The notes: a model not told the origin generated them from the sequence alone. Shown: positions 1 to 28,660, numbered from the stretch's first letter. The stretch: DNA of 64,000 nt from a virus (IMGVR_UViG_3300037067_006949:32001-96000), one strand, 5' to 3'. Program-made: numbers and translations.

Positions 1-174
1 CCAGTCAAAAAGAGATGCCATATGGAAAAAGATATGATTGGATATTATCAAACTATTGGCGAGATAAACGGAATTACTTATGCAAGAGATACGTACATGG
101 CACTAATGGAATTGAAATATCAAATTGTCATTTCCGGCATAAAATGAACCTTTTAAGTAAGGGAGAAAAAAATA

Positions 175-396
175 ATGAACTTTGAAAATATGGTAAAGAT
201 GTTTCAAGTTTCAGATTATATATTTGCCGTTTTTAGTGGTGGAACACACGATGGCCAAAGAATTAAGCTTGATTCTATTAAGGCGACGATTTGGTTCTCA
301 AAACCACTAGAAGTCTATTCCTTTAGCTATCTTTGCTACGATAATACTTGGGCGTTTAAATTGATCGAAAATGAAAAAGGAGGAGACCATGGATAA
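175..396 (+). CDS. hypothetical protein
   Basis: ORF with GGGAG RBS directly after site 138. Confidence 0.6.
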   Translation: MNFENMVKMFQVSDYIFAVFSGGTHDGQRIKLDSIKATIWFSKPLEVYSFSYLCYDNTWAFKLIENEKGGDHG

Positions 397-652
397 GATT
401 TTGAACGAAGTCAAAGAAATGCGCAAAGAATTTCTGGATAACTTATTGCTTGATCAACTTCATAGCAAATCTTATATTGATGAGAAATGCACGAAATGTG
501 CTTTTCATAGTGAGATTTTCCATAACAATCGTGTGATCCATCTTTGTAATGATGTATGGTCTGGAGACTGGCATGTTGGGAAGCACATTTTTTATTCTGA
601 AACAAAGGATATTTGTATAGAATGCGATGGGTTTAAGGACAAAAATGGATAA
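389..652 (+). CDS. hypothetical Cys-rich protein
   Basis: AGGAG RBS before ATG 389; CxxC motifs. Confidence 0.6.
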   Translation: MDKILNEVKEMRKEFLDNLLLDQLHSKSYIDEKCTKCAFHSEIFHNNRVIHLCNDVWSGDWHVGKHIFYSETKDICIECDGFKDKNG

Positions 653-1088
653 AATTGAACTAGCAAAGTCGTTTGCTTATATATATCATAGAGATCAAAA
701 ATATGGTGAAGAACCTTATTACAATCACTTATGGCGAGTTTTTGATGCTGTAAAGAAGGCTGGTTATGGAGAAGATTATCAAATTGTAGCTTTGCTTCAT
801 GATTCTGTTGAAGACACTAGTATGAGTTATGAGACAATTGAGAGAAATTTTGGCGTTGAAATAGCAGGTGATATTGCATCTATTACCCATATAGAGCGCG
901 AAAAATACTTTGATTATATTCGAGAATCCGTGATGCATAACGAGGTTGCCAAAGTAGTTAAGTTCTTTGACTTGATGGACAATCTTGAGCATGGTTTCTT
1001 GAATGAAAAATACGCCTCTTTAATTCCGAGATATAAAAAAGCGTTACAGATTATGACTTTGGGAGATGTGAAATGGGAAGACAAATAG
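645..1088 (+). CDS. HD-domain small alarmone ((p)ppGpp) hydrolase, RelA/SpoT HD/Mesh1-like
   Basis: Motifs HRDQKYG..PY..HL, ALLHDSVEDT and VKFFDLMDNL, typical of SpoT-type HD hydrolases. Confidence 0.8.
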   Translation: MDKIELAKSFAYIYHRDQKYGEEPYYNHLWRVFDAVKKAGYGEDYQIVALLHDSVEDTSMSYETIERNFGVEIAGDIASITHIEREKYFDYIRESVMHNEVAKVVKFFDLMDNLEHGFLNEKYASLIPRYKKALQIMTLGDVKWEDK

Positions 1089-1390
1089 CAAAACAACCTA
1101 ATGGTTTATATGCGGTATGGTCTAGTATTGCTGACGATTTTATTGTTGAGGACGCAACAGAAGAAGAGATTCGCAATTGGTGGATAAAAGATGCTATTGA
1201 GGATGCAACTGAAAGGGCTAATAGAAGTTTAAACGATTCGTTTATGAGAATTGAGAAAAATGGTACAGATAATTGGGGAGATGACTACAAATATCTGTCA
1301 GAAATTCGTGATGAAGTTCATGGAGAACATAACAATTGCGACGCTTGCGATTTAGATTATCCTATTTGTAATAATTGTTTAGGCGCTTAA
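1073..1390 (+). CDS. hypothetical protein
   Basis: ORF in co-oriented operon. Confidence 0.65.
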   Translation: MGRQIAKQPNGLYAVWSSIADDFIVEDATEEEIRNWWIKDAIEDATERANRSLNDSFMRIEKNGTDNWGDDYKYLSEIRDEVHGEHNNCDACDLDYPICNNCLGA

Positions 1391-1399
1391 GGAGATTTT

Positions 1400-2491
1400 A
1401 TGTCGTCATTGATTGTAAAGATTTGTAAAGTTGAAAACGTTACCAAACATCCGAATGCTGATAGGCTGTCAATAGCTACTGTGGGCGGTTGGAATTGTAT
1501 TGTTGGTCTTGATCAATACAAGACTGGAGATAAGGTTGTTTTTATTCCTCCCGATTGTGTTATTCCAAATAACCTAATTGAGAAATATAATCTTGAATAT
1601 TTAAAACACAATGGTCGTACCGGAACGGTAAAGCTTCGCGGTTACATTTCTCAAGGTTTGATTTTGGATGTTCCAGAAGGCAGTTGGAAAGTGGGAGATG
1701 ACGTTGCTAATGCCATGGGCATTACAAAATATGAACAGCCAGAGCCCAAATTCTCAATTGGCGGCGCAAGACAATCAACCAAGAGGAAACTAAATCCGTT
1801 GTTTGATAAATACACTGATATCGAGAACATTAACAACTTCAATGACGTGTTTAAAGATGGTGATCTGGTGGTTGTAACCGAAAAAATCCATGGATGCAAT
1901 GGCAGATGGTCTTTGTTACCAATTGCATATAGTAACAAATTACCGTTGATTGAAAAGATTAAGTTTGTATGGAATAAATATATCCTAAAAAAGAAATTTG
2001 AATTTGTATATGGTAGCCATAACGTTCAGTTGACTAGTGATTCAAGAACTAAAAACTTTTATGGCGATGATGTTTGGGGAAAAATTGCGAAGAAATATGA
2101 TCTGGCAAATAAAATTTCAGAAAACACTATCGTTTATGGCGAAGTTTATGGAGAGGGAATTCAAGATTTGACTTATGGTTTGAAGGGCATTGACTTTGCA
2201 ATATTTGATATCAAACGTGATGGGATATATTTGAATTGGGAAGAGGTTGTAAATTATTGTATTCAGCATGGTCTGCCTAATGTTCCTATGATTTCCTGTA
2301 ATGTGAAATTTGATAAAAACAAATTGAAAGATTGGACTGACGGAAAATCGTTTGTTTATAAGGAACAGTTTCGTGAGGGGTGTGTCATTAAACCGATGAT
2401 TGAAGAAAATGATCCTAGAATTGGCAGAAAGATTTTGAAGAGTGTGAGCACAGAATATCTTACTCGCAAGGGTGGAACAGAATTTCAATAA
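1400..2491 (+). CDS. RNA ligase, DRB0094/Rnl5-like, with N-terminal tRNA-binding OB fold
   Basis: N-terminal HPNADRL; ligase motif I TEKIHG; YGEVYG, FDIK, EGCVIK, KILK. Confidence 0.85.
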   Translation: MSSLIVKICKVENVTKHPNADRLSIATVGGWNCIVGLDQYKTGDKVVFIPPDCVIPNNLIEKYNLEYLKHNGRTGTVKLRGYISQGLILDVPEGSWKVGDDVANAMGITKYEQPEPKFSIGGARQSTKRKLNPLFDKYTDIENINNFNDVFKDGDLVVVTEKIHGCNGRWSLLPIAYSNKLPLIEKIKFVWNKYILKKKFEFVYGSHNVQLTSDSRTKNFYGDDVWGKIAKKYDLANKISENTIVYGEVYGEGIQDLTYGLKGIDFAIFDIKRDGIYLNWEEVVNYCIQHGLPNVPMISCNVKFDKNKLKDWTDGKSFVYKEQFREGCVIKPMIEENDPRIGRKILKSVSTEYLTRKGGTEFQ

Positions 2492-2521
2492 AATGGTTAT
2501 TTTATGAGAAAAGGAGTTTGA

Positions 2522-2794
2522 ATGGGTAGTTATTGCGAAGTTAGACAGATTTATAGCGGAACAGCATTTATCAATGTGCAAGAAAATATTGATGGAAGGG
2601 TTATGGTTTGGGGGAGCACATATACAAATAAAACTGTTTTAGTTTTTAATGGGATTAATTTTTCGCTGTATCAATTTGAGAATGAGGAATTTTTTAAAGA
2701 GTGGTTGGAAAATAACAGATACAATAGTAATGAAATATTTTTGTTACAGTATGATAACGAATTACGAAAAAATGTTATCGTAAAAATTGATTAA
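2522..2794 (+). CDS. hypothetical protein (single-gene unit between sites 2487 and 2790)
   Basis: AAGGAG RBS; stop lies in left arm of site 2790. Confidence 0.65.
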   Translation: MGSYCEVRQIYSGTAFINVQENIDGRVMVWGSTYTNKTVLVFNGINFSLYQFENEEFFKEWLENNRYNSNEIFLLQYDNELRKNVIVKID

Positions 2795-2823
2795 AATAGT
2801 TCTTTTAATCAGACGGAGAATTT

Positions 2824-2973
2824 ATGAAAAAATATTATATATTTAGATGGAAGATAAATAAAATTATTCATGTTATTAAAATGATAATTAGCCCCGAATA
2901 TAGAAAGCAACAAAGGTCGTATATTATTCATCTTGAAGAATCAAGAAAAGAAATTGAAGAATTATTAAAATAA
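2824..2973 (+). CDS. small hypothetical protein (49 aa)
   Basis: GGAG RBS; fills the interval between sites 2790 and 2981; below ORF-track cutoff. Confidence 0.5.
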   Translation: MKKYYIFRWKINKIIHVIKMIISPEYRKQQRSYIIHLEESRKEIEELLK

Positions 2974-3017
2974 CTTTATGCTTAAAACAATTATTCTATG
3001 TAAGTTTTTGGTGACAA

Positions 3018-3197
3018 ATGAGAATAAAAAACAATAAAATGATAAAAAGAAAGACGACAATAAGAATAGATCAAACTTGTTCTGTTTGTCTAGGCGCTAT
3101 TATAAGGGGTTCAGACGTTTGGGTAATAAGTAATTTGCGTGGCAAAAATAGAAAATATTATCACATTGAATGCGGAGACAACATAAATGAGTTTTGA
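3018..3197 (+). CDS. small zinc-finger protein (CxxC...HxxC), paralog of 4802..5005
   Basis: Manual translation MRIKNNKMIKRKTTIRIDQTCSVC...KNRKYYHIECG. Confidence 0.6.
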   Translation: MRIKNNKMIKRKTTIRIDQTCSVCLGAIIRGSDVWVISNLRGKNRKYYHIECGDNINEF

Positions 3198-4305
3198 ACA
3201 ATACAATAATACAATTATTCAAGGAAATGTTTTAGAAGTATTAAGGTCTTTACCATCAAATTTTATAAATATGATTATCACCAGTCCTCCATATTGGGGA
3301 TTGCGAGATTATGGTCTGCCAGATGCAATTTGGGGCGGAAATCCTGATTGCAATCATAATTGGATTGAAAATGTGAGGCATCCTGCTGGCGGAATGGGGA
3401 GTAAGGGTGCTAATGTTGGCGCTAATAGGAACGATTTTGCCAACATGAGAGATCATGACGTGATCAGTAACACTTGTGTAAAATGTGGCGCATGGAAAGG
3501 ACAATTGGGGCAAGAACCAGACTTTCACGATTACATAAAGCATTTGGTTGAAATTTTCAATGAAGCTGGTAGAACCATGGTAGATGATGGCTCCCTATGG
3601 GTAAATTTGGGTGATAGTTATGCTGGAAGTAATCAAGGTTCTGGCACAGAAAAAATAAGCGATAAACAAAAAAGTAATCGTGGCACAAATTATATGAATA
3701 CCTTAAATCACAAAAGTATTTTATCCAAAATTGATGTTCGTTCTAAATCTCTCGTTGGCATTCCAGATCGTTTCAAAGTTGCTATGATTGATTCTGGATG
3801 GATTTGCCGTAACGAAATTATATGGCACAAGCCAAATCAAATGCCATCGTCCGTCAAAGATCGTTTTACTGTTGATTTTGAGAAATTTTATTTTTTCACT
3901 AAGAATGAAAAATATTATTTCGAACAACAGCTAGAAGAGAGCGAATGGGCGAAGATAGATAAACGGGCCGAAACTGGAGCAACTCTTGGTCAAAAAGGTT
4001 CTCAGGGAGGGTATGCACAAAACGAATCTGGAAAATACAGAAAAGACAAGATGCGGAATATGCGTTGTGTGTGGAGCATAAACACCAAACCGCTTAAAGA
4101 GGCTCATTTTGCCGTTTATCCAGAGGGATTGATTGAAACTCCAATTAAAGCTTGTTGCCCTAAAAATGGCATTGTTTTAGACCCATTTTTCGGTTCTGGA
4201 ACATCTGGATTGTCATCTAAGAAATTGGGCAGAAATTATATCGGAATTGATCTCAATCCTGATTATATTGAAATTGCAAGAAATAGAATAGATAAAGTCA
4301 CATAA
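3187..4305 (+). CDS. DNA amino-methyltransferase (N4-C/N6-A, beta class)
   Basis: TSPPY catalytic motif near N-terminus; DPFFGSGT SAM-binding motif near C-terminus. Confidence 0.9.
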   Translation: MSFEQYNNTIIQGNVLEVLRSLPSNFINMIITSPPYWGLRDYGLPDAIWGGNPDCNHNWIENVRHPAGGMGSKGANVGANRNDFANMRDHDVISNTCVKCGAWKGQLGQEPDFHDYIKHLVEIFNEAGRTMVDDGSLWVNLGDSYAGSNQGSGTEKISDKQKSNRGTNYMNTLNHKSILSKIDVRSKSLVGIPDRFKVAMIDSGWICRNEIIWHKPNQMPSSVKDRFTVDFEKFYFFTKNEKYYFEQQLEESEWAKIDKRAETGATLGQKGSQGGYAQNESGKYRKDKMRNMRCVWSINTKPLKEAHFAVYPEGLIETPIKACCPKNGIVLDPFFGSGTSGLSSKKLGRNYIGIDLNPDYIEIARNRIDKVT

Positions 4306-4338
4306 AATTCGAGTTTTAAGCAGATTTAAGGAGAAAAT

Positions 4339-4734: not shown

Positions 4735-4801
4735 AATTTACATAAAATCTTAGTTTTAAGCATAACACATAGAATTTCAATTTTAAGTAAAGGTGGTTTT
4801 C

Positions 4802-5030: not shown

Positions 5031-5368
5031 TATAGACATTGGAGGGAGATATTATGTTCAAGATTCCTGGAGATTTCAAACCTAGTTTGTTACTGAAAAT
5101 ACTTTGGTATGTGAGCGATATGTTGCTGGTGATTATTGTTACTCTTTTCACACTATTTATGTTTGAATTGATTTTTGGAGTATAATTATGAAATACACAT
5201 CTAAACAATGTAAATATTGCAAAAACGTTTCAAAACTTGATAAAAATGGTAACGTTTACTATGCTGGTGGCATAATGCATAATTCCTGTTGGTATTGTGG
5301 AACGTCTTTTGGAAGTCAACATTGTTTAAAGTTGCTTAAAAATTAGATTTTATGTAAAAGGAGGAAAT

Positions 5369-5674: not shown

Positions 5675-5803
5675 AAGATTGCGAGGACAATAATGATTGC
5701 AAGAATAAAATCTTGGATGTATGATCAGATGTGGAAATTGATTAAATTTATAACAGAATGTATTTCTGAAGAATTACAATAAAAGACTTGTTTTAAGGAG
5801 AAT

Positions 5804-6376: not shown

Positions 6377-6407
6377 AAATTACTTAAAATTGATCTTTTA
6401 AGCATAA

Positions 6408-9690: not shown

Positions 9691-9981
9691 ATGAGTGCTG
9701 ATACCGGAATTTATATTGCTAAATTTCCAGAAGGTTATAGAGTAACCGAAGTCGTTCAATGTATTGAAAATGTTTATTATTATAATCCTGGCACAAAAAG
9801 ACGTAAAAAAGAATTGGAAGCATATTTTGGCAATAGTGAAGTTTATCCGACGCGAGAACTTGCGTCTAGTAAGGCTTGGAAAATCTATGATGAGTACAAT
9901 CGTGAAGAAGAAGATTCTGGGATGGGATGCCCAATCGAATATGGCATTAGCTATATTGGTGAATATGAAAGTTTTGAATAA
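9691..9981 (+). CDS. hypothetical protein
   Basis: AAGGAG RBS; stop in left arm of site 9977. Confidence 0.7.
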   Translation: MSADTGIYIAKFPEGYRVTEVVQCIENVYYYNPGTKRRKKELEAYFGNSEVYPTRELASSKAWKIYDEYNREEEDSGMGCPIEYGISYIGEYESFE

Positions 9982-10011
9982 AACTGGCATTTTAAGCAAA
10001 TTTGGAGGATA

Positions 10012-11043
10012 ATGAATTATAACGAAATTATAAATACACATTATACAATTTTGGAATCTTTACCTGAAGAAGAAATTTATAATGTTGTTACAACTTTGAT
10101 TGAACATTATCGTGAATACGGATTTCCTTATTTTGAAATAGATAAAAATAAAATTAAAAAAGAATACAAATCGTTATCGAAATCTGATTCTTCAAAAATA
10201 GAATTGCCAAACAATGAATTGCAACAAGGAATGTTGGGATTGGCTACTTGTAACATGTTTCATCCAGAAATGTACTCTACGCATTGTAAAAGCGCCAAAT
10301 CTCCTATGGACGTATTTTTAGATGATAAGTTGTTTAGGGTTGCACTTATAAAAAGAATAAAATATAATGATCGTAATATCAATCCTTCATGTGTACGCAG
10401 AACCCTAACAGCTTTTGGTGCTCAAGCGGTTTCCAATTTCCGCCCATCTATTGCGAAATGGGTATATCAAAAATATTGTCTTTCAGGCGGTAAAGTTTTA
10501 GACCCATGCATGGGTTATGGAGGAAGATTGATGGGCGCATTTTGTTCTCATGTAAGCTCTTACACGGGGGTTGATCCTAACCAAGATGCGTTCAATGGTA
10601 ACAAAAATCTTTATCAAAGTTTGGTTGACTCTGCTGAAAATAACGTTTATCCAAAAATGAATTTTTATAATTTGCCATTTGAAGATTTTGAAGAAGTTGA
10701 AAAATATAATTTAGTTTTTACTTCGCCTCCATATTTTAATATTGAAAAATATTCTAATGAAGAAACTCAATCTTATTTACGTTACCCGTTATATTCAGAA
10801 TGGCGAGATAAATTTTTAAAGATTTTAATCAGTAAATCTTTTGAATACTTAGAGAATGGTGGCTATCTAGTTTTGAATGTTGGAAAGCCCGTTGATGAAG
10901 ACACAAAAGAAATCGGATCGAGCATTTTTGGAAGGCATCCAGAAGTTTATCACATGAGATTGAGTAAGCTTCTTGGTCAAGGAAATAAATCGGATGTAAG
11001 TCATAAAACGGAGCCAATATTTGTGTGGCAAAAACTTACATAA
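10012..11043 (+). CDS. DNA amino-methyltransferase (SAM motif before TSPPY)
   Basis: LDPCMGYGGR then FTSPPYF; bounded by sites 9977 and 11039. Confidence 0.85.
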   Translation: MNYNEIINTHYTILESLPEEEIYNVVTTLIEHYREYGFPYFEIDKNKIKKEYKSLSKSDSSKIELPNNELQQGMLGLATCNMFHPEMYSTHCKSAKSPMDVFLDDKLFRVALIKRIKYNDRNINPSCVRRTLTAFGAQAVSNFRPSIAKWVYQKYCLSGGKVLDPCMGYGGRLMGAFCSHVSSYTGVDPNQDAFNGNKNLYQSLVDSAENNVYPKMNFYNLPFEDFEEVEKYNLVFTSPPYFNIEKYSNEETQSYLRYPLYSEWRDKFLKILISKSFEYLENGGYLVLNVGKPVDEDTKEIGSSIFGRHPEVYHMRLSKLLGQGNKSDVSHKTEPIFVWQKLT

Positions 11044-11077
11044 AAATTACATTTTAAGTAAAAAATAAGGAGAAAAA

Positions 11078-11284: not shown

Positions 11285-11333
11285 AAATCTAATAAAAGAA
11301 CGCTTTTATGTAAATTTTGAAGAGGAGGAATTA

Positions 11334-11966
11334 TTGAAGGGTGAAATTGTATTTTTGGAATATCAACAAGCAGTTGATTTTTTGTTACCCAGACATTATT
11401 CTGGTCGAACACCTTCAATTAGCCATGCGTTTGGTTGGCGCGTAAATAATGAATTAGTGGCAGTGTGTACTTTTGGGAAGCCCGCAAGCCCCCAATTGTG
11501 TTACGGTATTTGTGGTAAAGAATATCAGGATAAGGTATATGAATTAAATAGATTATGTAGGGTTGATGAATTAGAATTGCCATTGAGCAGTTTTGTGGCG
11601 GGGTGTTTGCGAAGATTGAGTGTTTATAATTACATTATTGTAAGTTATTCTGATACAGAAATGAATCACCATGGATATATTTATCAAGCATGTAATTTTT
11701 TATACACAGGAGCAACCAAAGAAAGAACAGATAAATATACCGAAGGCAACAAACATAGTAGACATTACAACAACGATGATCAAAATGGATTAAGAAAAAT
11801 TAGAAGTTCAAAACATAGATATGTATTTTTTGCCACAAGAAATAAAAAAATTAAGAAAGAATATATGGAACATTTAAATTATCCTATATTGCCATATCCT
11901 AAAGGTGATAATGATAATTATATTCTTGGAGAATATTTGGAGCCAAGGATCATAAAATCAACATGA
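11334..11966 (+). CDS. Mom-family (GNAT-fold) DNA adenine modification protein
   Basis: HYS, FGKPAS, ELNRL and VSYSD...HHGYIYQACNFLYTG, characteristic of phage Mu Mom homologs. Confidence 0.8.
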   Translation: MKGEIVFLEYQQAVDFLLPRHYSGRTPSISHAFGWRVNNELVAVCTFGKPASPQLCYGICGKEYQDKVYELNRLCRVDELELPLSSFVAGCLRRLSVYNYIIVSYSDTEMNHHGYIYQACNFLYTGATKERTDKYTEGNKHSRHYNNDDQNGLRKIRSSKHRYVFFATRNKKIKKEYMEHLNYPILPYPKGDNDNYILGEYLEPRIIKST

Positions 11967-11993
11967 AATATCAATTTTAAGTGAGGAAATGCT

Positions 11994-12617: not shown

Positions 12618-12820
12618 ATCTGCTTAAAAGGTAAATTTTATTGATAAAAGGAGATATATCATGGGGATTATTTTTGATGATGATTCTGATGAAATTATGA
12701 GCTTTGAAGAATATTGTATGGAAGTATTGGATATCCCATACTATAACTTTCTCAACAAAGAAGAATGGGAAAGTTGCTATGAAAAGTACGAAAAATATTT
12801 AGAAAGAAATGTGGGAAAAG

Positions 12821-14914: not shown

Positions 14915-14938
14915 CATAAAAGTAAAATTTTAAGCAAA

Positions 14939-16156
14939 ATGGAGAAAACATTGAAGGTAAATGAAATTTATTTGGGAGACAATTTAGAATTACTTAAGCA
15001 ATTGGAAGATAATAGCATTGATAGTTGCGTTTCTGATTTTCCTTATAATCTTGGTTTTATGGGTAAAAAGTGGGATACGATTGGGAATTATTACCAGTGG
15101 TGCAATGATAGGGCGATTGAACTATTTCGTGTATTGAAGCCTGGTGCATTTTGCCTTATTTTTTCTGGAACTCGTACTCAGCATAGAATGGTATGTGGTT
15201 TTGAAGATGCCGGATTTGAAATAAAAGATCAGATTGATTGGATTTATTCACAGGGGTTTCCAAAGAATTATAATATCAGTAAGGGTTTCGATAAGAAGGC
15301 TGGAGCTAAAAGAGAAATCATTGGAAGAAGCAATAGGGCTATTGGTAAAAATCCAGTTGCAACAAGTTTTGCGGGAACGTCTACCTTTTCAGAAACGGCA
15401 GATGGCAGAGAAAATAGTAAATGGATTACTGCTCCAGCAACAGACCTAGCTAAACAATGGGATGGTTGGGGAACAGCGCTCAAACCTACACATGAGCCAA
15501 TCATGATGGCGCAGAAACCCATAGAAAAGAATTATTGCTATAATGTACAAAAATGGGGTGTAGGTGGCTTGTACATTGATGGTAGCAGAATTGAACTGAA
15601 TGGTGAGGTTGTTCCCATCAATAAGTTGGAAAAGTGGTCTGGTTTTGGAGAAGAGAATAGACCAGATTATGAAGCAACAGTCAATACAAAGGGAAGATAC
15701 CCTGCCAATACTATATTCGATGAAGATGCGGGAGAAATGTTAAATGAACAAAGTGGGAAAAGGCATAGCAGTGGAATATATAATAATCAAAGCGATTCTC
15801 ACGCAAACATGTATGGAATGAATGCCAATCGTGCTAATATTCAATATTCTGATTCTGGTGGCGCATCTAGGTTTTTCTATTGTGCAAAAGCTTCGCAGAA
15901 GGATCGTACAGAAAATGGTCAAATTGAAAATAGTCATCCTACGGTGAAACCAACGTTGCTTATGACGCACCTAATTAAACTTGTAACACCTCCAAATGGT
16001 ATTAACATTGACATTTGTGAGGGAACTGGAACTTCAATGAAAGCTTGTTTATGGCTAAAAAAGGATGGTTACGAAGTCAATCATATTGGTTTTGAAAGCG
16101 ATCCAGATAGTTATGAAACGGCTTTGAAAAGAAAAGAATTAAATACCATAAAATAA
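14939..16156 (+). CDS. DNA amino-methyltransferase (beta class, variant motifs)
   Basis: SDFPY (DPPY variant), HPTVKP, DICEGTGT; bounded by sites 14915 and 16147. Confidence 0.85.
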   Translation: MEKTLKVNEIYLGDNLELLKQLEDNSIDSCVSDFPYNLGFMGKKWDTIGNYYQWCNDRAIELFRVLKPGAFCLIFSGTRTQHRMVCGFEDAGFEIKDQIDWIYSQGFPKNYNISKGFDKKAGAKREIIGRSNRAIGKNPVATSFAGTSTFSETADGRENSKWITAPATDLAKQWDGWGTALKPTHEPIMMAQKPIEKNYCYNVQKWGVGGLYIDGSRIELNGEVVPINKLEKWSGFGEENRPDYEATVNTKGRYPANTIFDEDAGEMLNEQSGKRHSSGIYNNQSDSHANMYGMNANRANIQYSDSGGASRFFYCAKASQKDRTENGQIENSHPTVKPTLLMTHLIKLVTPPNGINIDICEGTGTSMKACLWLKKDGYEVNHIGFESDPDSYETALKRKELNTIK

Positions 16157-16180
16157 CAGTTTTAAGTAGGTTTATAATAG

Positions 16181-16986: not shown

Positions 16987-17037
16987 ACGGTTTGATTACA
17001 TAAAAGAGAGATTCTATTAGGTTTTTAAGGAGAAACA

Positions 17038-17691: not shown

Positions 17692-17946
17692 ATGAAAAAA
17701 TATGAAATAATAGCCATTGTCAATAGCGAATATAAAATTTGTTTTAATATAGAATGTGATAATATTGAATATTATGAAAATACGCTTATTACTGATGGAG
17801 CGAAAATAATATTTAATAACAAAGAAAAGTTGGATGGTAATGTTGCAGTAGAAATTGAAAAAATTTATGCCACAGGCGAAAAAGAAATTAATTATAATAT
17901 TACGGCAAAAGATTTTTTTGTAGTTTCGAAACATGGGAAGGCCTAA
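17692..17946 (+). CDS. hypothetical protein
   Basis: GAGG RBS; stop overlaps site 17945. Confidence 0.6.
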   Translation: MKKYEIIAIVNSEYKICFNIECDNIEYYENTLITDGAKIIFNNKEKLDGNVAVEIEKIYATGEKEINYNITAKDFFVVSKHGKA

Positions 17947-17983
17947 TAAAATCCGACTTTCATGTAAAAATTAAGGAGATAAA

Positions 17984-18404: not shown

Positions 18405-18675
18405 CATAAAATGAAGTTTTTAAGCATAGAATCATTCTTTCAAACAGGATTATACGAGATGTCTATGACAATAAGAGAGAATATTAATATTGGATCAACC
18501 TTTATGAAAAGTGGCAAGAAATACGTTGTCACTGGAATATGGTATGAAATGGGGGGGGATGTTCCATGGCGGTAGAATATGTAAAAGCCAATGATGACTA
18601 CGGATGTGCGTTTCCATTTAAGTTCGCAAGAGTTGTTTATAATGAAGATATTGAAAAATTAGAAATTATAAAATA

Positions 18676-18704
18676 TTGACAAAATATTGATTGTATGGTA
18701 ATAT
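18676..18704 (+). promoter_or_regulatory. sigma70-type promoter for tRNA-His
   Basis: TTGACA-17-TAATAT with TG upstream. Confidence 0.75.
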
Positions 18705-18714
18705 CAATATATAT

Positions 18715-18789
18715 GGTGAATGTGGCGAAATTGGCAAACGCGCCGCTCTGTGGATGCGGATATTGAGAGTTCAAGTCTCTTCATTCACC
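18715..18789 (+). tRNA. tRNA-His (GTG), encoded G-1, no encoded CCA
   Basis: Acceptor GTGAATG/CATTCAC plus G-1:C73; anticodon loop CTGTGGA; T arm GAGAG-TTCAAGT-CTCTT. Confidence 0.88.
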
Positions 18790-18790
18790 C

Positions 18791-18819
18791 TTGACAAAAT
18801 GAATTATGTATGGTATGAT
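18791..18819 (+). promoter_or_regulatory. sigma70-type promoter for the recombinase
   Basis: TTGACA-17-TATGAT with TG upstream. Confidence 0.78.
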
Positions 18820-18856
18820 TATAGTATAAATAAGAAGGTAATCAAAGGAGAATAAT

Positions 18857-19753
18857 ATGTTCAAAGAAATGCAAGAATATTTTGACACATTAGAAATTGA
18901 TAAATCACGCCATACAGTAAGAAGTTATCGTACGTCATTGAATGTTTTTGTTCGTTATTTTGACATTCAATCTGCTAATGATATTAATAAAATTACAGAG
19001 TCAAATATTCAAAGCTATTTGAATATGCTTGCTTCAAAATCAACTGCTAAAAATTCCAATACCGCAAAAGCAAGTGCTAATGCAAACTTTCGTGTAGTTA
19101 AAGCATTTTTGAATTGGATGAAAACCAAGGGCTATATAGAGTCTTCTCCGGTTGGAACGGTTCATAGATATAAAGAAGCCAAGCACATTGGCACGATTTT
19201 CAGCAAAGATGAACGCGATAGAATCATTATGTCAACAAAGAAACGCCCAAGCTTGCAAATGATGATGACACTGATGTTTTATACAGGACTTAGAGCAGAA
19301 GAATCAATAAATGTCAAGGTAAACGACATTCAAAATGGAGTATTGAAAGTTCATGGCAAGGGTAATAAGGAACGCGAATTGGCTCTTACGCCATTTGTTA
19401 TCGGCGTGATCAACAATTATTTGAAGAATAGAATGCGCGATTCAGAATATCTTATCACGTCAATGCGTGGTGGGCACCAAATAACCACTACTTCGGTTTT
19501 GGAAAGAGTCAAAGTGGCTTGTAAAATGGCTGAAATTGACGAAGATAAAATCAACAACATCGGTGCGCATTCAGTTAGACGTAGCTTTGCTTGTTTTCTT
19601 TTGATGGATGGGTGGTCAACATTTGCAATCCAGAAGGCTTTGGGGCACGAATCCCCAATGACTACTGATCGTTATGTAGAACCAGCAAAATCGCTAACCG
19701 CAACTAAAGCGCTTTTAGGTCAATCCGCACCATCATGGTATAAGGAGAATTAA
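18857..19753 (+). CDS. tyrosine recombinase (XerC/D-like, 298 aa)
   Basis: Full catalytic set: GLR(AEE), GKGNK, HSVRR, LGH, TDRY; N-terminal core-binding domain (TVRSY); too short for a lambda-type arm-binding domain. Confidence 0.92.
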   Translation: MFKEMQEYFDTLEIDKSRHTVRSYRTSLNVFVRYFDIQSANDINKITESNIQSYLNMLASKSTAKNSNTAKASANANFRVVKAFLNWMKTKGYIESSPVGTVHRYKEAKHIGTIFSKDERDRIIMSTKKRPSLQMMMTLMFYTGLRAEESINVKVNDIQNGVLKVHGKGNKERELALTPFVIGVINNYLKNRMRDSEYLITSMRGGHQITTTSVLERVKVACKMAEIDEDKINNIGAHSVRRSFACFLLMDGWSTFAIQKALGHESPMTTDRYVEPAKSLTATKALLGQSAPSWYKEN

Positions 19754-20607: not shown

Positions 20608-20642
20608 TTTAAATAAAATAGAGATTTTAAGGGAAAACAGTC

Positions 20643-20834: not shown

Positions 20835-20867
20835 TCAGAATAAAATAACAATTTTAAGTGAGGAAAA

Positions 20868-21179
20868 ATGAGTAAACAGAATTTGGAAGACTTACTTCTT
20901 TATGCGGATTTTGCAGACAAAAATACTAATGGTGTTTTTGGTATATCTTCAAAATGGCTTCGAGAAATCGTTGAAGAGATTAGGGGATTGCGAAAAGAAT
21001 CTGAACTTGATTATAGTGATATGCGTTCATTCCAAGCGAAATATATTGAATCTGATCAGCAAAAAAGAAGTCTTGAAAGTGCTCTGACCAAAATTGCATT
21101 TCTAAAAAATGAATGGGACGATCCACAAGATTTTATCAATGATTTACAAAATATTGCAAAAGAATCTTTGATAAAATGA
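20868..21179 (+). CDS. hypothetical protein
   Basis: Between sites 20839 and 21170. Confidence 0.65.
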   Translation: MSKQNLEDLLLYADFADKNTNGVFGISSKWLREIVEEIRGLRKESELDYSDMRSFQAKYIESDQQKRSLESALTKIAFLKNEWDDPQDFINDLQNIAKESLIK

Positions 21180-21203
21180 GAATTTTAAGCAAGAGGAGAA
21201 TAT

Positions 21204-21416: not shown

Positions 21417-21461
21417 TTTCACATAGAATTTATGTTTTAAGCAGATTTTAAGGAGGTACAT

Positions 21462-22440: not shown

Positions 22441-22808
22441 TGAAAATATTTTTGATTTGTCCGGTAAGAAATGCAACAGAAAACCAAAAGAAAAGAATGA
22501 TAGAATATATTGAAGAACTTGAATCCGAAGGCAACAAAGTCCACTATCCGGCAAGAGACACAAAGCAGGAAGATTCAACTGGCGGTTGGAACATCTGTAC
22601 TACAAACAAAAACGCAATCTTGGAATCAGATGAAGTTCATATCTTTTGGGACGATAAGAGCACAGGTAGCCTATTTGATCTAGGAGTTGCATTTGGTGCA
22701 CACAAGAGGCTTGTGGTGGTCAATCCAGAGGCAATAGATACATCTAACACAAAATCTTTCCATAACGTCATTAATTATTGGAATAATTTGAACTCGCTTA
22801 AAAACTAG
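22440..22808 (+). CDS. nucleoside 2-deoxyribosyltransferase-like protein
   Basis: KIFLICP, HYPARD, AILESDEV, STGSLFDLGVAFG. Confidence 0.65.
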   Translation: MKIFLICPVRNATENQKKRMIEYIEELESEGNKVHYPARDTKQEDSTGGWNICTTNKNAILESDEVHIFWDDKSTGSLFDLGVAFGAHKRLVVVNPEAIDTSNTKSFHNVINYWNNLNSLKN

Positions 22809-23025
22809 ATTTTAAGTAAAATGGAGATAGATATTGCAGCAAACAACTGGTCGTTTATATAAAATGCCGTTGCCAAAATTGAACTCAGATATGATAAATG
22901 AATTAATCAACATTTCCCAAAAATTGTGCCATACGGATATATCTTTGGGCGACATTGAAGGGGCGGATGAAGACGGTTATTATAAAGATTTATTTTTGTG
23001 CTTTTACATTTAAAGGAGAAATGAA

Positions 23026-23701: not shown

Positions 23702-23739
23702 ATTGACATAAAAAGTATATTTTAAGCAGAAAGGATTAT

Positions 23740-24227: not shown

Positions 24228-24244
24228 TATATTTAATAGTACGC

Positions 24245-24351: not shown

Positions 24352-24360
24352 ATATCCATA

Positions 24361-24382
24361 GGGGAGAATTAATTTTCTCCCC
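24361..24382 (+). other. GC-rich hairpin (processing or terminator-like)
   Basis: GGGGAGAA-ttaatt-TTCTCCCC, no U-tract. Confidence 0.5.
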
Positions 24383-24398
24383 AAGCATCCATCTAAAT

Positions 24399-24472
24399 GG
24401 ACTTATAGCTCAATGGTTAGAGCGTCCGTCTTATACGCGGCAGGTTTGGTTGTTCGAGTCAACCTAAGTCCA
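24399..24472 (+). tRNA. tRNA-Ile (TAT anticodon), no encoded CCA
   Basis: Acceptor GGACTTA/TAAGTCC, A73; D arm GCTC/GAGC; anticodon loop CTTATAC; T arm GGTTG-TTCGAGT-CAACC. Confidence 0.85.
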
Positions 24473-24494
24473 CAATAACAATAAGGATAATGAT

Positions 24495-25124
24495 TTGACA
24501 AATATCGTGGCGTTCTCCGATCTGCATGGTCAATATAGCAAAAAATTAACAAGATGGTTCAATGAACATCCGGCAGATATTTTATTGTTTGCCGGAGATT
24601 TACAACTAAATGGCTATGATGATGGGTCATTCTTTTTGCAATGGCTGAATAGTTTACCTTACAAACATAGGGTTATGATTTTTGGGAACCACGATGGCAA
24701 CTATGATTATACAATGGAAGAAGCTAAAAAATACACATCTATTCATATTCTAAATAATGAAAGTATCATTGTTGATGGAATAAAAATTTGGGGATCACCA
24801 TATTCAGTTCAATTTGGAGAATGGTGGTTTATGAAACCGGATAATGAATTATATGATATATATAAAAATATTCCCGATGATACTGATATAGTAATGACGC
24901 ATACTCCTGCATTTGGCGTATTAGATAAAACTATTGATGGAATAAATGCCGGAAGTATACAATTACGTTTTCGGATTGACGAATTGAACAATCTTAAATA
25001 TCATGTGGCGGCGCATATTCACGAAGGTTACGGAATGGAAAAGGGAACTGCCACGTTTATTAATTGTAGCATTCTTGATGAAAAATATAGATTAGTAAAT
25101 GATCCTGTGATGTTTGAAATTTGA
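24495..25124 (+). CDS. calcineurin-like metallophosphoesterase
   Basis: SDLHG, AGD, GNHD, HTP, HIHE motifs. Confidence 0.88.
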   Translation: MTNIVAFSDLHGQYSKKLTRWFNEHPADILLFAGDLQLNGYDDGSFFLQWLNSLPYKHRVMIFGNHDGNYDYTMEEAKKYTSIHILNNESIIVDGIKIWGSPYSVQFGEWWFMKPDNELYDIYKNIPDDTDIVMTHTPAFGVLDKTIDGINAGSIQLRFRIDELNNLKYHVAAHIHEGYGMEKGTATFINCSILDEKYRLVNDPVMFEI

Positions 25125-25150
25125 CATGAAATTGTATTTTTATGTAAGTT

Positions 25151-25232
25151 TATTGGGCGGCGTGGCGCGACACGTAGTGGCGGAGTTCCGATCAAACCAC
25201 CGTGCTTCTCAGGTTGGAATCCTGACCCAATC
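25151..25232 (+). ncRNA. non-canonical tRNA-like RNA
   Basis: ATTGGG/CCCAAT acceptor-like stem stacked on T arm TCAGG-TTGGAAT-CCTGA; no standard 7-nt anticodon loop. Confidence 0.5.
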
Positions 25233-25237
25233 AAATT

Positions 25238-25307
25238 GCTCCGATAGTTTAAGGGAAGAACCTACTTTTACTAGTAGAGATGGGCGTTCGGTTGCGCTCT
25301 CGGAGCA
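25238..25307 (+). tRNA. degenerate tRNA (Val-TAC-like)
   Basis: Acceptor GCTCCGA/TCGGAGC; CTACT/AGTAG stem with 6-nt loop TTTACT; 8-nt T loop. Confidence 0.55.
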
Positions 25308-25350
25308 AATTGAATAAAATCATACTTTTAAGTAAAAATCAAGGACATAA

Positions 25351-25506
25351 ATGAATACGGTTGTATATGAATGTGGTTGCAGTATTTCATACAGTATGTA
25401 CGGAGATAAAGAGGTGCTTGAGGCTCATATGTGCGATCAGCATTCAAGAAAATATCCGAATATATTAGAAATAATTGCCAAGGTGATTAGAGAAATTCAT
25501 GCTTAA
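25351..25506 (+). CDS. small hypothetical protein (51 aa)
   Basis: AAGGA RBS after site 25313; stop in degenerate site 25502. Confidence 0.5.
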   Translation: MNTVVYECGCSISYSMYGDKEVLEAHMCDQHSRKYPNILEIIAKVIREIHA

Positions 25507-25545
25507 ATTTATTATTTTAAACAAAAAAAATAAAAAAGGAGAAAT

Positions 25546-25791
25546 ATGTTAACAGTAAAAGTAAATATGGATAGTTTTTATTTTATGGAGGAAACTCCCT
25601 TTGTCCAGGTATTTGACAAATATGGAATGAATCCGTATATATCATATCAGTCTTCGCGTTCAAAGTATTTCAGAGAAGTAAAAGATGGCGAAATAACCAT
25701 TATGAATTCCAACGGGATTAAAATTGACGAAATTGATTTAAGAAAAGATAGCGATGGCATTCCCAAAGAAACGCCAGCTAAGGATGCATAA
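25546..25791 (+). CDS. hypothetical protein
   Basis: AAGGAG RBS. Confidence 0.6.
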   Translation: MLTVKVNMDSFYFMEETPFVQVFDKYGMNPYISYQSSRSKYFREVKDGEITIMNSNGIKIDEIDLRKDSDGIPKETPAKDA

Positions 25792-25996
25792 AAAAATGAA
25801 ATTAGTTGACATATCAGAATACAAAGATGACGGAATAATTTGGGATAATATCGCTGGTTATCCTATCCCATATATTTTTGTAAAACCCCAAGATATAGCT
25901 GACCCAATTGATGAGCGATTGATTACGATTTCTAAATTGCGAATTGAAATAGAAAATTTAAAAGACGAACTAAGGCGAAGAAGGAGAAAATGGTGA
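25754..25996 (+). CDS. hypothetical protein
   Basis: ORF in operon; start uncertain. Confidence 0.55.
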   Translation: MAFPKKRQLRMHKKMKLVDISEYKDDGIIWDNIAGYPIPYIFVKPQDIADPIDERLITISKLRIEIENLKDELRRRRRKW

Positions 25997-26394
25997 ACGC
26001 ATCAGAATTAGCAGAAAAAATGTTACTATGGGAAAGGAACAGAAGGTCGCTTGATGAACTGGAAAAAGAAATTCAAGAAGAAGTTTTAAAACTTCAAAAA
26101 ACACAAGTTGTTGGCGGATGTAGAGTAACATTCTCTGGCGGAAGAAATACCTATGATTATGAGACCGCCGGAAAAACAGCGCCTAAAGAAATTATTGAAA
26201 AGCATTCTACTGTTGTTGAAACAACTGATTGGAAGAGCGTTGTAGAACTAGCGAAGGTCGATCCCGATATTATTGAAGAATGCACAGTCAAAACAACCAA
26301 TGTTGATTACAAAGAGGTTTGCAAGGAATCTAAAATTGCTCCGATTATCTTATCAACAACCCCTCCGTCCGCATCAGTTAAATTGGAAAAATAG
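25990..26394 (+). CDS. hypothetical protein
   Basis: AAGGAG RBS; stop abuts site 26395. Confidence 0.7.
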   Translation: MVNASELAEKMLLWERNRRSLDELEKEIQEEVLKLQKTQVVGGCRVTFSGGRNTYDYETAGKTAPKEIIEKHSTVVETTDWKSVVELAKVDPDIIEECTVKTTNVDYKEVCKESKIAPIILSTTPPSASVKLEK

Positions 26395-26426
26395 TATAGA
26401 ATGCACATTTTAAGTTAAGGATTAAC

Positions 26427-27002
26427 ATGATTATTAAAGTATTAGAAGAACATGGATATCCAAGCGCAGCCCTAGGATTTTCTTTATCATACAATAGCGG
26501 ACTTGAAAGAGCAATGGAACTTTTGCCTAAATTTGCCTTTGGTAAATCTGGAGAAACAAAATTCCTTGAATCAATATATGTTTGGCTGGATGTAACTGCG
26601 CCGATTTTCATGTGGTCTGAAATGGATACATATCGTATCTCCACGAAACAGTCGGAAAGCACTATGCACACATTGACGAAACGTGTGTTGACACATGAAG
26701 ACTTTGAATGTCCAATATCAGATAACCTCTTGGAAGAGTTAAATCACGCAATCCATATGTACAAAACATGTCCAGCCAGCGAAACATTTGCAGAAGAAAA
26801 AAGAAAAATATTTCTTTTGATAAAAAATAATCTTCCATCTGGATTTCTTCAGAGAAGAATTTGGGTTATAAATTATCGAACTCTTCAAAATATTTATAAT
26901 CAGCGTCATGATCATAAACTTCCACAATGGCGTTATTTTTGCGAACAAATACTTGTTCAGGTAGAACATCCAGAATTTATACAGGAAAATTATGTGGCTT
27001 AG
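26427..27002 (+). CDS. ThyX-fold-like protein (divergent)
   Basis: KFLESI.VWLDV.AP...E.DTYR....QSESTMH and LP.G....R....NYRTL..IY.QR..HKL.QW; lacks canonical RHR motif. Confidence 0.5.
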   Translation: MIIKVLEEHGYPSAALGFSLSYNSGLERAMELLPKFAFGKSGETKFLESIYVWLDVTAPIFMWSEMDTYRISTKQSESTMHTLTKRVLTHEDFECPISDNLLEELNHAIHMYKTCPASETFAEEKRKIFLLIKNNLPSGFLQRRIWVINYRTLQNIYNQRHDHKLPQWRYFCEQILVQVEHPEFIQENYVA

Positions 27003-27231
27003 TTGGATCGCATCTGGACTCACACTGTTAGGAAACATTATTCTTATAGGCAATAAAAGTTGGAAATCATTCGTGATCTTTGCAATCGGTAATGCTATGT
27101 TTTCATATTACTGGTTTATAAGGGAAGAATGGGCAACTTTTGTTTTAGTGTTGGTGTTTCTTGCCCAAAATGTTTGGGGTTTGATCAAATGGAGAAATGA
27201 GTCTAAAAGGAGAGGAGCAATCAAAATATAG
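26992..27231 (+). CDS. small 3-TM membrane protein (PnuC-like half transporter?)
   Basis: Three hydrophobic helices; NVWGLIKW C-terminus. Confidence 0.5.
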   Translation: MWLSWIASGLTLLGNIILIGNKSWKSFVIFAIGNAMFSYYWFIREEWATFVLVLVFLAQNVWGLIKWRNESKRRGAIKI

Positions 27232-27305
27232 AAATTATATAGGTTATTATTGTTGAAATTTGTAGTTGAATATTATATTTTGAAATTATAAAGGAGAAAC
27301 AAAGT

Positions 27306-28247
27306 ATGGCTGAATTTTTAAAAGCAACAAAGGGCAAGAAACCTGTTCGATTAGTTCTAGGAGGCCCGTCTGGTTCAGGAAAAACATATACCGCATTAAC
27401 GTTTGCAAAATACTTACAATCCATTACTGGTAAACCTACCGCGGCAATTGACACAGAACATTATCGTATGAGCTTGTATGCTGACAAATTTGATTTCGAT
27501 GTAAACAATTGGGAGCCACCTTTTGATCCGCGAGAATTGATTAAAACTATTCATGACGTAGAAAAGGCGGGATATGGTCAATTAATTGTAGACAGCAGTA
27601 CACACTTCTATAATTCTACTGGTGGCTTATTGGAGATTGTTCAGGATGCCGCGAAACAAAAATATGGTGGCAATCAATACGCAGGATGGGCTGTAGGGAC
27701 TCCAATTCAGGACGCTTTGATTGACGCAATTATTCGATCCCCTATTCATATGATCTTTTGTACTCGCGCAAAACAGGCATATGTTGAATCGGAAAAAAAT
27801 GGAAGAAAAACATATGAAAAGGCAGGAATGGAGCTTCAGCAAAGAGACGGTTGGGAATTTGATTTTGATTTCAGTTTGATTATGGATATGGACAATAATG
27901 CGAACGTTGCAAAAGGCATGGGGTATGTTCCAACCGGAGCGTACATCAAGAAACCAGACGAAAAAGCTATTGAGAAAATTATGAAATCAATCAGCGAAAA
28001 CACAACTGAAGAAGTGGCTATTCCTCCAGTGAAGTTTGTTGCGCCAAAACCAGAAGAGGTTTTGAAAGCAACTAAGACGAGCGTTGTTGAAAAATGTGTT
28101 TCTTTGGGCGGAAGCAAAAATGAAGCATTAATGGAAATTGTAAAATCATTTGAGCCATCTGGAAACCCAAACAAAATCAAGGACATCAATGTTCTTAATG
28201 AATTATTGGTTAAGTTATCAGAACTGGAAAAGAAAGGAATTGAATAA
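27306..28247 (+). CDS. Sak4-like AAA ATPase / single-strand annealing protein
   Basis: Walker A GPSGSGKT, IDTE, IVDSSTH; adjacent to SSB. Confidence 0.8.
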   Translation: MAEFLKATKGKKPVRLVLGGPSGSGKTYTALTFAKYLQSITGKPTAAIDTEHYRMSLYADKFDFDVNNWEPPFDPRELIKTIHDVEKAGYGQLIVDSSTHFYNSTGGLLEIVQDAAKQKYGGNQYAGWAVGTPIQDALIDAIIRSPIHMIFCTRAKQAYVESEKNGRKTYEKAGMELQQRDGWEFDFDFSLIMDMDNNANVAKGMGYVPTGAYIKKPDEKAIEKIMKSISENTTEEVAIPPVKFVAPKPEEVLKATKTSVVEKCVSLGGSKNEALMEIVKSFEPSGNPNKIKDINVLNELLVKLSELEKKGIE

Positions 28248-28633
28248 TGTCATTAAATATTAGTGATACACAAAGGGTTTCAGTTTGGACTATCGAAGAT
28301 CGTGAAAAGTTCGCTCTTGTTCAAATGTCTAGCTCTCGTAAAGATAAACAATCTGGAGAATACAAGAACACAAGTTGGGCATATGTTCGTTTTGTCGGAA
28401 CGGCGTATAGCAAAATTGCAACCGATGGTCTTGTACATGGGGATCGCATTGTTCTGAAGGGCGCAACCATTTCACAAGAACCATACTTGGTCGATGGGGT
28501 AAAAACATATCCGAAATATCCGCAAATCGTCGTTTTTAATTGGGAACATTATGTGCCCGATGGAACACAAGCGCCAAGCGGTATTGATGCGCCTCCACAA
28601 ATTGAGGAAGAAGACGAAGGGCTTCCGTTTTAA
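28247..28633 (+). CDS. ssb: single-stranded DNA-binding protein
   Basis: OB-fold-like body; acidic tail EEEDEGLPF. Confidence 0.75.
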   Translation: MSLNISDTQRVSVWTIEDREKFALVQMSSSRKDKQSGEYKNTSWAYVRFVGTAYSKIATDGLVHGDRIVLKGATISQEPYLVDGVKTYPKYPQIVVFNWEHYVPDGTQAPSGIDAPPQIEEEDEGLPF

Positions 28634-28660
28634 CATAAAATAATGCTTTTAAGTGAAACA

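Follow-up and report, generated by a model that had tools for sequence, protein, structure and literature searches.

A dyad punctuates the early gene region of a large phage

The locus described here raises the question of why a large phage should carry the same short inverted repeat at one gene boundary after another. The DNA analyzed is a 64,000-nucleotide stretch (the window) of the virus record IMGVR_UViG_3300037067_006949. The record is 125,426 bp long and an estimated 91% complete, and the window covers its bases 32001-96000. A preliminary interpretation made from the DNA alone, referred to below as the sequence-only reading, had proposed that a 20-bp dyad with two inverted arms and a 6-bp spacer divides the accessory region into gene cassettes, and that these are moved by a Xer-like tyrosine recombinase encoded among them. 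We find that the dyad coincides with the joints of gene mosaicism, that it does not depend on this recombinase, and that it most likely acts at the level of DNA. The explanation that we tentatively favor is a binding site for a putative dimeric phage protein.

For the exact motif CWTAAAA-N6-TTTTAWG, dinucleotide shuffles predict 0.01 matches in the window, or 7.1 when up to two mismatches are allowed; the actual counts are 13 and 38. A weight matrix built from the sites was used to scan the whole record at a threshold of at least 14 bits. It returned 58 sites, comprising 32 at window positions 138-28653 (where about 30 had been reported), 17 in the 17.6 kb preceding the window (genome 14434-30703), and 9 elsewhere, among them that at window 55108. 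The array therefore starts upstream of position 138. The interval from 28.7 to 55.1 kb, previously described as free of sites, is nearly so, with one weak match inside a gene at window 39539. The early region has 1.06 dyads per kb, compared with 0.04 per kb in the replication, sugar and nucleotide operon and 0.15 per kb elsewhere.

The invariant part of the dyad is its core, TAAAA-N6-TTTTA, which is present 46 times against 1.6 expected (z = 27.5) and is a far outlier among 5-mer inverted repeats with 3-10 bp spacers in the genome. The extended sense-strand consensus is TTRC-W-TAAAA(t)-N4-(a)TTTT-W-G-YAA. Sense-strand copies favor CATAAAA..TTTTAAG, with A at both variable positions in 34 of the 58 sites. 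The spacer is strictly 6 bp, since the count of TAAAA/TTTTA cores in relatives collapses at 4, 5, 7 and 8 bp, and the arm-spacer-arm layout of Xer-type sites recognized earlier is borne out. All 58 central spacers are distinct, also when reverse complements are compared, which is about the chance outcome for 58 draws from 4,096 hexamers and carries no signal in itself.

Gene layout, and with it the internal or intergenic status of each site, was taken from a simple in-house open reading frame caller. Although 84% of genome positions are internal to a gene, 53 of the 58 weight-matrix sites are not (binomial P = 4e-37), in agreement with the placement at gene boundaries that had been noted. The median distance from the upstream stop codon to the site is 0 nt, the stop often being a TAA within the left arm. 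From the end of the site to the next start codon the median is 18 nt, and the ribosome-binding site usually lies in this interval.

Gene content changes at the dyad sites

Contigs of four other metagenomes were compared with the phage over window 9001-29000. Joints abut sites at 10000>11030, 11309>12616, 14939>16138, 16169>16585, 17970>18405, 20636>22423 and 22823>23024. Sixteen of the 49 listed joint ends fall within 12 nt of a site, and bases this close to a site make up only 4.8% of the total. A joint end is present at 13 of 21 gene junctions with a site and at 8 of 26 without one; the latter junctions are often overlapping, co-inherited gene pairs. Dyad sites and mosaic joints coincide, as the sequence-only reading had anticipated for gene-content breakpoints in relatives.

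The relative L252, whose recombinase is 88% identical to that of the phage, retains the sites at 14915 (spacer different by one base) and 16147 (same spacer) on either side of a non-homologous methylase gene. Its sites at 17945 and 18405 are islands of about 30 and 18 identical bases amid unrelated genes, the latter with the spacer tgaagt unchanged. At one site in the L155 group, three alternative right flanks follow a single left flank, and the switches occur at the arm borders. Because sites are retained while the intervening genes change, it is the sites that form the scaffold and the genes that are the movable part. The methylases of L252 differ from those of the phage in the corresponding array slots, which places anti-restriction genes among the swapped items.

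Other breakpoints lie at gene starts that lack a site, or inside first codons (the L155 lineage; L139 versus L157), and for this reason we do not take the breakpoints as proof of site-specific recombination. A repertoire of spacer "addresses" shared among distant relatives whose flanks are not homologous was also considered and set aside. Six shared spacers were found against 3.6 expected in a column-shuffle test (P = 0.16), so that cross-lineage sharing is no greater than chance and gives no support for a common address set.

As a separate observation, one member of the L155 group has an in-frame insertion of about 580 bp inside a gene (L155:56 versus L153:187-768), which may be an intein or homing element.

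The dyad is shared with SPβ and other large Firmicutes phages

Protein sharing with SPβ was assessed by BLASTP, with a hidden Markov model search added for the HU-like gene. Few proteins are detectably shared. They include the DnaE polymerase, an HNH endonuclease, a YorS-like deoxyribonucleotidase, a dUTPase and two tail proteins, and further counterparts are a YonO-type RNA polymerase, the HU-like gene and a YomM-type second tyrosine recombinase. The closest DnaE genes are those of large phages of Clostridioides and Bacillus. Judged by these genes, the phage appears to be a distant member of the SPβ-like group. A megablast search of the array region against phage records gave no match.

Relatives reached via the primase-helicase and via the recombinase have the same core in the same position. 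Their outer bases vary (GATAAAA..TTTTATY and nATAAAA..TTTTATn are examples), and a spacing of 6 is strictly kept. Core density at recombinase-family loci is 0.37 per kb; in unrelated low-GC contigs totaling 451 kb it is 0.04 per kb. SPβ contains 32 core matches against approximately 2 expected; in the annotation tables as interpreted here, about 28 are intergenic or fall on a stop codon. The pattern ATAAAA-N6-TTTTAW was counted on each strand (forward/reverse; palindromic sites appear on both) and gave 22/22 in Kirov, 14/16 in vB_BcoS-136 and 19/25 in Geobacillus E3. The signal is less strong in the Clostridioides phages phiCD211 (4/10) and pCD1602_4 (10/3), and a reversed-pattern control gave 0-2 per strand. 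For TAAAA-N6-TTTTA, FADO has 33 copies against 1 in the control, and LIBA2945 has 18 against 6. Each relative that has the element carries 12-58 copies, and most examined sites in Kirov and E3 lie 2-6 nt ahead of the neighboring gene's ribosome-binding site.

Three other DnaE phages (LC76P1, TR-TP1 and MT835481) have neither this dyad nor a substitute. When viral contigs were scanned for the exact 14-base pattern, nearly all of the matches listed were single ones due to chance. From this distribution, the dyad appears to be a punctuation mark of long standing, common to a broad set of large Firmicutes phages that encode DnaE, SPβ among them. SPβ is a long-studied model phage, yet the SPβ papers searched make no mention of this dyad. 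Two SPβ copies (record positions 2627 and 116413; L130:2627-2646 and L224:16413-16432) lie inside features annotated only as "stem_loop".

The sites do not depend on the Xer-like recombinase

The tyrosine recombinase encoded within the array is intact and 298 residues long, as had been reported. It has an N-terminal SAM-like domain and a Phage_integrase domain, and its nearest solved relatives are XerA, XerD and XerH. The best solved matches are to XerA (1.5e-18) and XerD, and IntI4 aligns over 76 residues only (7.6e-6). The six catalytic residues (R146, K168, H238, R241, H264 and Y273) do not vary among 17 members of the family, at identities as low as 32%, and for that reason the enzyme is probably active.

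The sequence-only reading had expected motif and recombinase to occur together and had made its recombinase link depend on this. A search of viral contigs for close relatives of the enzyme found none, and there is no homolog in SPβ, Kirov, vB_BcoS-136 or Geobacillus E3, despite approximately 16-32 copies of the motif in each. Conversely, the recombinase is encoded by L155 (50% identity) and L164 (38%), whose gene junctions bear few sites or none. The flavor of the outer arms does not follow recombinase relatedness either, as L140 (45%) is closer to the phage than L141 (63%). Relatives keep the motif without the enzyme, and therefore the proposed link does not hold: the dyad sites do not depend on the Xer-like recombinase of the window.

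These data bear on the proposal of an integron-like array, in which the Xer-like enzyme would excise, insert and reorder promoterless cassettes by joining any site with any other. The proposal draws support from the intact recombinase in mid-array, from the gene-content breakpoints at sites, and from one gene that stands behind a different site in a relative (back-joint 18422>17981, run X5). However, all 58 spacers differ, so that the homology needed by a tyrosine recombinase is absent and exchange between different sites would be blocked; an any-to-any system is consequently not supported. The sites remain as a scaffold and do not travel with the gene, and no attC-like folded structure is present. 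The four motif-bearing phages without this enzyme, the scarcity of junction sites in L155 and L164, and the independence of outer-arm flavor from recombinase relatedness all point in the same direction, and we now give the integron-like array almost no credence. What survives of the cassette interpretation is the punctuated accessory region, the arm-spacer-arm layout and the breakpoints at sites, while the Xer-like link and the any-to-any mechanism do not.

The YomM ortholog is a second tyrosine recombinase, encoded outside the window. Its identity to homologs is 51% in G001, 28% in SPβ, 29% in Kirov, 27% in vB_BcoS-136, 30% in E3 and 27% in FADO. A YomM-like gene is present in every motif-rich phage tested and missing from two of three motif-poor phages, yet MT835481 has such a gene (36% identity) and no motif. 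The catalytic residues are kept in the phage, G001 and Kirov, and in SPβ and E3 a Lys replaces the second Arg. By gene distribution, the YomM-like protein may be the best partner candidate that can be named, albeit a thin one.

Such an enzyme, with the Xer-like recombinase or instead of it, would be the agent in a different scheme, in which the dyads are Xer-type core sites with private 6-bp overlaps. Exchange would then occur only between the same site on two genome copies or in relatives infecting the same cell. The outcome would be recombinase-mediated cassette exchange in a natural form, with genes swapped between fixed slots and no within-genome deletions. The layout resembles that of the single-recombinase Xer sites difH and difSL, with arms ending in AAAA and TTTT (PMC5357621). 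The distribution of YomM orthologs and their mostly kept catalytic residues fit this scheme, as do the invariant residues of the 17 Xer-like sequences. A YomM-type gene is also found in Kirov, FADO and E3, which we take to be lytic, and in SPβ, which integrates via a serine recombinase. Sites with identical spacers are syntenic while the genes between them differ, and the three right flanks of the L155 group switch at arm borders. An equal pattern would, however, be produced by short-homology recombination at 25-30 conserved bp, and the phage encodes a Sak4-type protein. Many breakpoints in relatives are at site-less gene boundaries or within first codons, and the tandem empty sites at window 4741/4768 are unlike the leftovers of site-by-site deletion. 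The motif-free MT835481, the Lys substitution in SPβ and E3, and the chance level of cross-lineage spacer sharing also count against the scheme, which we consider unlikely but a genuine contender.

The dyad most likely acts as DNA

A hairpin function was rejected. The variable arm position can pair in only 19 of the 58 sites, near the chance value, and the commonest form, CATAAAA..TTTTAAG, contains an A-A mismatch. Eight sites fold at -0.3 to -4.7 kcal/mol, five of them no better than shuffles. A terminator function was rejected as well, as the dyad contains no stable hairpin and the few real terminators are separate elements.

Approximately 18 promoters are clearly recognizable in the phage; they share the unusually long consensus TTGACAAA-N9-10-TGTGGTAnnAT, which includes an extended -10. 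No dyad site overlaps this TTGACAAA..TGTGGTAnnAT form, and the earlier separation of sites from canonical promoters stands. The dyad itself was rejected as a sigma-A promoter, with a -35 element at the right distance in only 2-3 sites.

The context of the dyad is mostly stop codon, site and ribosome-binding site, but it varies. A terminator, then the dyad, then a sigma-A promoter are found at genome 104158, at SPβ aimR and yorE, and in Kirov (L241). At window 55108 a promoter precedes the dyad, at genome 2756 the dyad precedes a terminator, and elsewhere dyad sites stand on both sides of a tRNA-like gene. Several sites are therefore outside the downstream transcript, and for this reason the dyad most likely acts at the DNA level, as neither a promoter nor an mRNA signal.

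An action in mRNA would make the dyad an endoribonuclease processing site or the target of a translational regulator. Its position 0-10 nt ahead of the ribosome-binding site in all phages examined is consistent with this, as is the sense-strand asymmetry, with TTTTAA right arms common in SPβ and the Clostridioides phages too. But a palindrome is meaningless in single-stranded RNA unless it is paired, and pairing has not been selected. Sites that stand between terminator and promoter, ahead of a terminator or ahead of the tRNA-like gene are by their context either absent from the downstream mRNA or not followed by a ribosome-binding site on which they could act. An mRNA signal is accordingly improbable in our view.

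The dyad could also be a promoter specific to the phage, used either by the YonO-like RNA polymerase or by the host enzyme together with a phage factor. YonO transcription of the SPβ late operon begins at one start site, which lies upstream of yonK (PMC5467207). The dyad precedes many genes, its left arm and first spacer base often read TAAAAT, which is -10-like, and a YonO homolog is encoded in the genome. However, the T that completes this -10 is present in only about 60% of sites, there is no -35, and no sigma factor domain was found. Where the dyad follows a terminator, a separate sigma-A promoter comes after it, and one site directly precedes a terminator. Kirov, E3 and FADO have the motif without YonO, TR-TP1 and MT835481 have YonO without the motif, and no core motif is present between yonK and yonN of SPβ, the gap that contains the YonO start site. 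A promoter of this kind is very improbable.

The YonO homolog of MT835481 (W10), an unverified gut phage scaffold, was read through five stop codons (3 TGA, 1 TAG and 1 TAA) at 420-4172, and may be broken, split or intron-interrupted.

A binding site for a putative dimeric protein

The leading explanation is the alternative that the sequence-only reading had offered beside its cassette model, namely operators of a dimeric regulator or sites for a genome-organizing protein. In the form we prefer, the dyad would be a DNA-level binding site for a putative dimeric phage protein that doubles as a scaffold between swappable gene modules, and we rate this combination at a little short of an even chance. 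The two 5-bp half-sites, TAAAA and TTTTA, would lie one helical turn apart across a free 6-bp spacer, and the weaker bases outside them depend on the lineage (TTRC-W in this phage). The combination of a fixed 6-bp interval and unconstrained spacer bases is compatible with a dimer bound to one helical face. As MrpR does with its SPBRE element in SPβ, the putative protein would bind the dyad without cutting it. Once bound, it may silence the early region, where sites are dense, or block transcription or organize the DNA there; dimer binding, the identity of the binder and the effect of binding are all inferred. The sites, as short conserved sequences of 25-30 bp at gene boundaries, would serve as joints and hence as a fixed scaffold for gene swaps among related phages, with the Sak4-type protein as a possible agent of exchange. 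SPβ YorG is annotated as Sak4-like. The HU-like protein was considered as the binder and set aside: it occurs in motif-rich and motif-poor phages alike, which makes its distribution uninformative.

Several points weigh against the binding-site explanation. The binder is putative only, and the dyad lacks the constant position with respect to promoters that a classical operator usually has. The preference for CATAAAA..TTTTAAG on the sense strand, together with the TTTTAA right arms of SPβ and Clostridioides phages, may reflect A-richness of the sense strand or an unexplained directional function. Dyad sites are also borne by Kirov, FADO and E3, so that, if these relatives are lytic as we assume, the role common to all cannot be plain repression of a prophage. 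Among phages with core proteins only 23-30% identical, the dyad core does not change, and such constancy is more typical of the signals of basal machinery than of operator-repressor pairs. Finally, the arm-6-arm layout and two intact tyrosine recombinases would also be compatible with a cutting role.

Organization of the phage genome

The phage is present in public groundwater and landfill metagenome runs. Genes of the first 0-11 kb of the genome are on the minus strand. From about 12 to 85 kb the plus strand carries, in order, the small early genes, primase-helicase, DnaE-type polymerase, sugar locus and ribonucleotide reductase, and the lysin, tail and other structural genes occupy the minus strand from 85 to 125 kb. 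Table 1 lists the dyad sites of the window with the other annotated features. A GC-containing hairpin, aggggaagagaaatcttcccct, lies at window 28654-28714, between the last early dyad site and the start codon of the primase-helicase gene.

Table 1. Dyad sites and other features of the phage. Coordinates refer to the window unless given as genome positions.
Feature	Coordinates	Strand	Remarks
Dyad site	138..157	+	23.3 bits; start codon 17 nt downstream
Dyad site	2487..2506	+	21.8 bits
Dyad site	2790..2809	+	21.1 bits
Dyad site	2981..3000	+	22.8 bits
Dyad site	4301..4320	+	24.8 bits
Tandem dyad pair	4741..4787	+	4741-4760 and 4768-4787, 7 nt apart; empty slot
Dyad site	5335..5354	+	25.5 bits
Dyad site	5778..5797	+	18.6 bits; right arm merges into ribosome-binding site
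Dyad site	6383..6402	+	24.9 bits
Dyad site	9977..9996	+	Left edge of 1-kb segment (methylase-like gene 10012-11043) skipped in a relative (joint 10000>11030)
Dyad site	11039..11058	+	Right edge of skipped 10012-11043 segment
Dyad site	11291..11310	+	Left edge of segment skipped in run X2 (joint 11309>12616)
Dyad site	11962..11981	+	20.9 bits
Dyad site	12623..12642	+	Right edge of segment skipped in X2
Dyad site	14915..14934	+	Left scaffold of methyltransferase slot (gene 14939-16156)
Dyad site	16147..16166	+	Right scaffold of methyltransferase slot; spacer taacag
Dyad site	16999..17018	+	17.8 bits
Dyad site	17945..17964	+	Identity island in L252
Dyad site	18405..18424	+	Identity island in L252; spacer tgaagt
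Dyad site	20612..20631	+	24.6 bits
Dyad site	20839..20858	+	22.5 bits
Dyad site	21170..21189	+	20.8 bits
Dyad site	21422..21441	+	23.2 bits
Dyad site	22797..22816	+	25.3 bits
Dyad site	23707..23726	+	22.3 bits
Dyad site	25125..25144	+	17.6 bits; about 90 nt before tRNA-like gene, no ribosome-binding site after it
Dyad site	25313..25332	+	25.2 bits; 4 nt past tRNA-like gene
Weak dyad site	25502..25521	+	14.5 bits
Dyad site	26395..26414	+	16.7 bits
Dyad site	28634..28653	+	Last site of early array; precedes primase-helicase gene
Dyad site	55108..55127	-	26.4 bits; just downstream of sigma-A-like promoter, minus-strand block
Xer-like tyrosine recombinase	18857..19753	+	298 residues; six catalytic residues present
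Two sigma-A-type promoters	18676..18830	+	Start 18676 and 18791, around tRNA-His (18716-18790); second drives recombinase gene
Strong promoters	5002, 13789, 18676, 18791, 23546, 24199, 32099, 45250		More in genome
RNA ligase with OB-fold domain; GMP reductase/IMPDH-like; metallophosphatase; weak ThyX-like match	1400-2491, 12809-13786, 24495-25124, 26427-27002		Array accessory genes
Three DNA methyltransferase genes and one Mom-family gene	3187-4305, 10012-11043, 11334-11966, 14939-16156		Separate array slots
tRNA-Ile	24399-24473		Anticodon TAT
Odd tRNA-like gene	25237-25308		2-base anticodon call; dyad site on each side
AAA_24 (Sak4-type) protein	27306..28247	+	Candidate short-homology recombination enzyme
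YomM-ortholog second tyrosine recombinase	genome 3133-4158	-	Outside window (L010:1429-2454); BLASTP
HU-like gene	genome 5055-5315	-	Outside window (L262); just downstream of YonO-type gene, pairing as yonO-yonN in SPβ
YonO-type single-chain RNA polymerase	genome 6170-8923	-	Outside window (L261); 27% identity to SPβ YonO

Implications

The dyad offers a concrete target for asking how large Firmicutes phages control or organize long early regions, what roles are played by the conserved YomM-type recombinase and the HU-like protein, and why gene swaps, those of DNA methylases and other anti-defense genes among them, have such clean joints. If the sites are cut by a recombinase, they would represent a new kind of gene-cassette system, and under the same-site exchange scheme anti-restriction and other accessory genes would be shuffled between fixed slots with no within-genome deletion. 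If they are only bound, they would represent a new multi-site operator or architectural system common to temperate SPβ and to relatives that we take to be lytic.

Comparison with known systems

A precedent is found in SPβ itself, where MrpR (YopR), a repressor with a recombinase fold, binds the multi-copy dyad SPBRE without recombination, and where chromatin affinity purification sequencing (ChAP-seq) of MrpR gave only the ten SPBRE peaks (PMC10516654). Like SPBRE, the present element is a multi-copy intergenic dyad in an SPβ-type phage and often stands just ahead of a ribosome-binding site. It differs from SPBRE in sequence, the latter being approximately AATACAAAnAATATGTAT (derived from seven MrpR-bound promoters), and SPβ has both elements. 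Its copy number is far higher, and it also occurs in Kirov, FADO and E3, again presumed lytic. Unlike MrpR, which has lost catalysis, the recombinase of the window retains its catalytic residues, and it has no BLAST similarity to MrpR/YopR.

The promoter and stem-loop (PeSL) cassettes of T4-type phages are likewise built on short repeated intergenic elements among small non-essential genes, with the elements at joints of insertion, deletion and replacement, and with shuffling as a by-product of the repeated boundary sequence (PMC2839356). A PeSL, however, consists of a strong sigma-70-type promoter and a terminator stem-loop, and the dyad is neither. Nor were mini-circles seen here, although no search was aimed at them.

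The difH/XerH and difSL/XerS systems share with the dyad inverted arms with AAAA/TTTT inner ends and a central region of about 6 bp (PMC5357621), and the phage genome encodes Xer-like recombinases whose catalytic set is complete. A dif site, however, occurs once per replicon, has arms of about 10-11 bp and is often beside the recombinase gene, whereas here 58 sites in one orientation have unique central regions and 7-10 informative bases per arm. No two sites within the genome share a spacer as Xer/dif partner sites do; only the same site in a close relative does so, and the dyad occurs in phages without the recombinase of the window. In pdif modules, XerC/XerD sites alternate in orientation.

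Integron arrays resemble the early region in that mostly promoterless small genes lie between repeated sites, with a tyrosine recombinase nearby. Their attC sites are 57-141 bp long, are recombined as folded single strands at a common crossover point, and move with the gene. The dyad sites, in contrast, measure 20-26 bp, do not fold, each have a spacer of their own, and keep their place when a gene is replaced.

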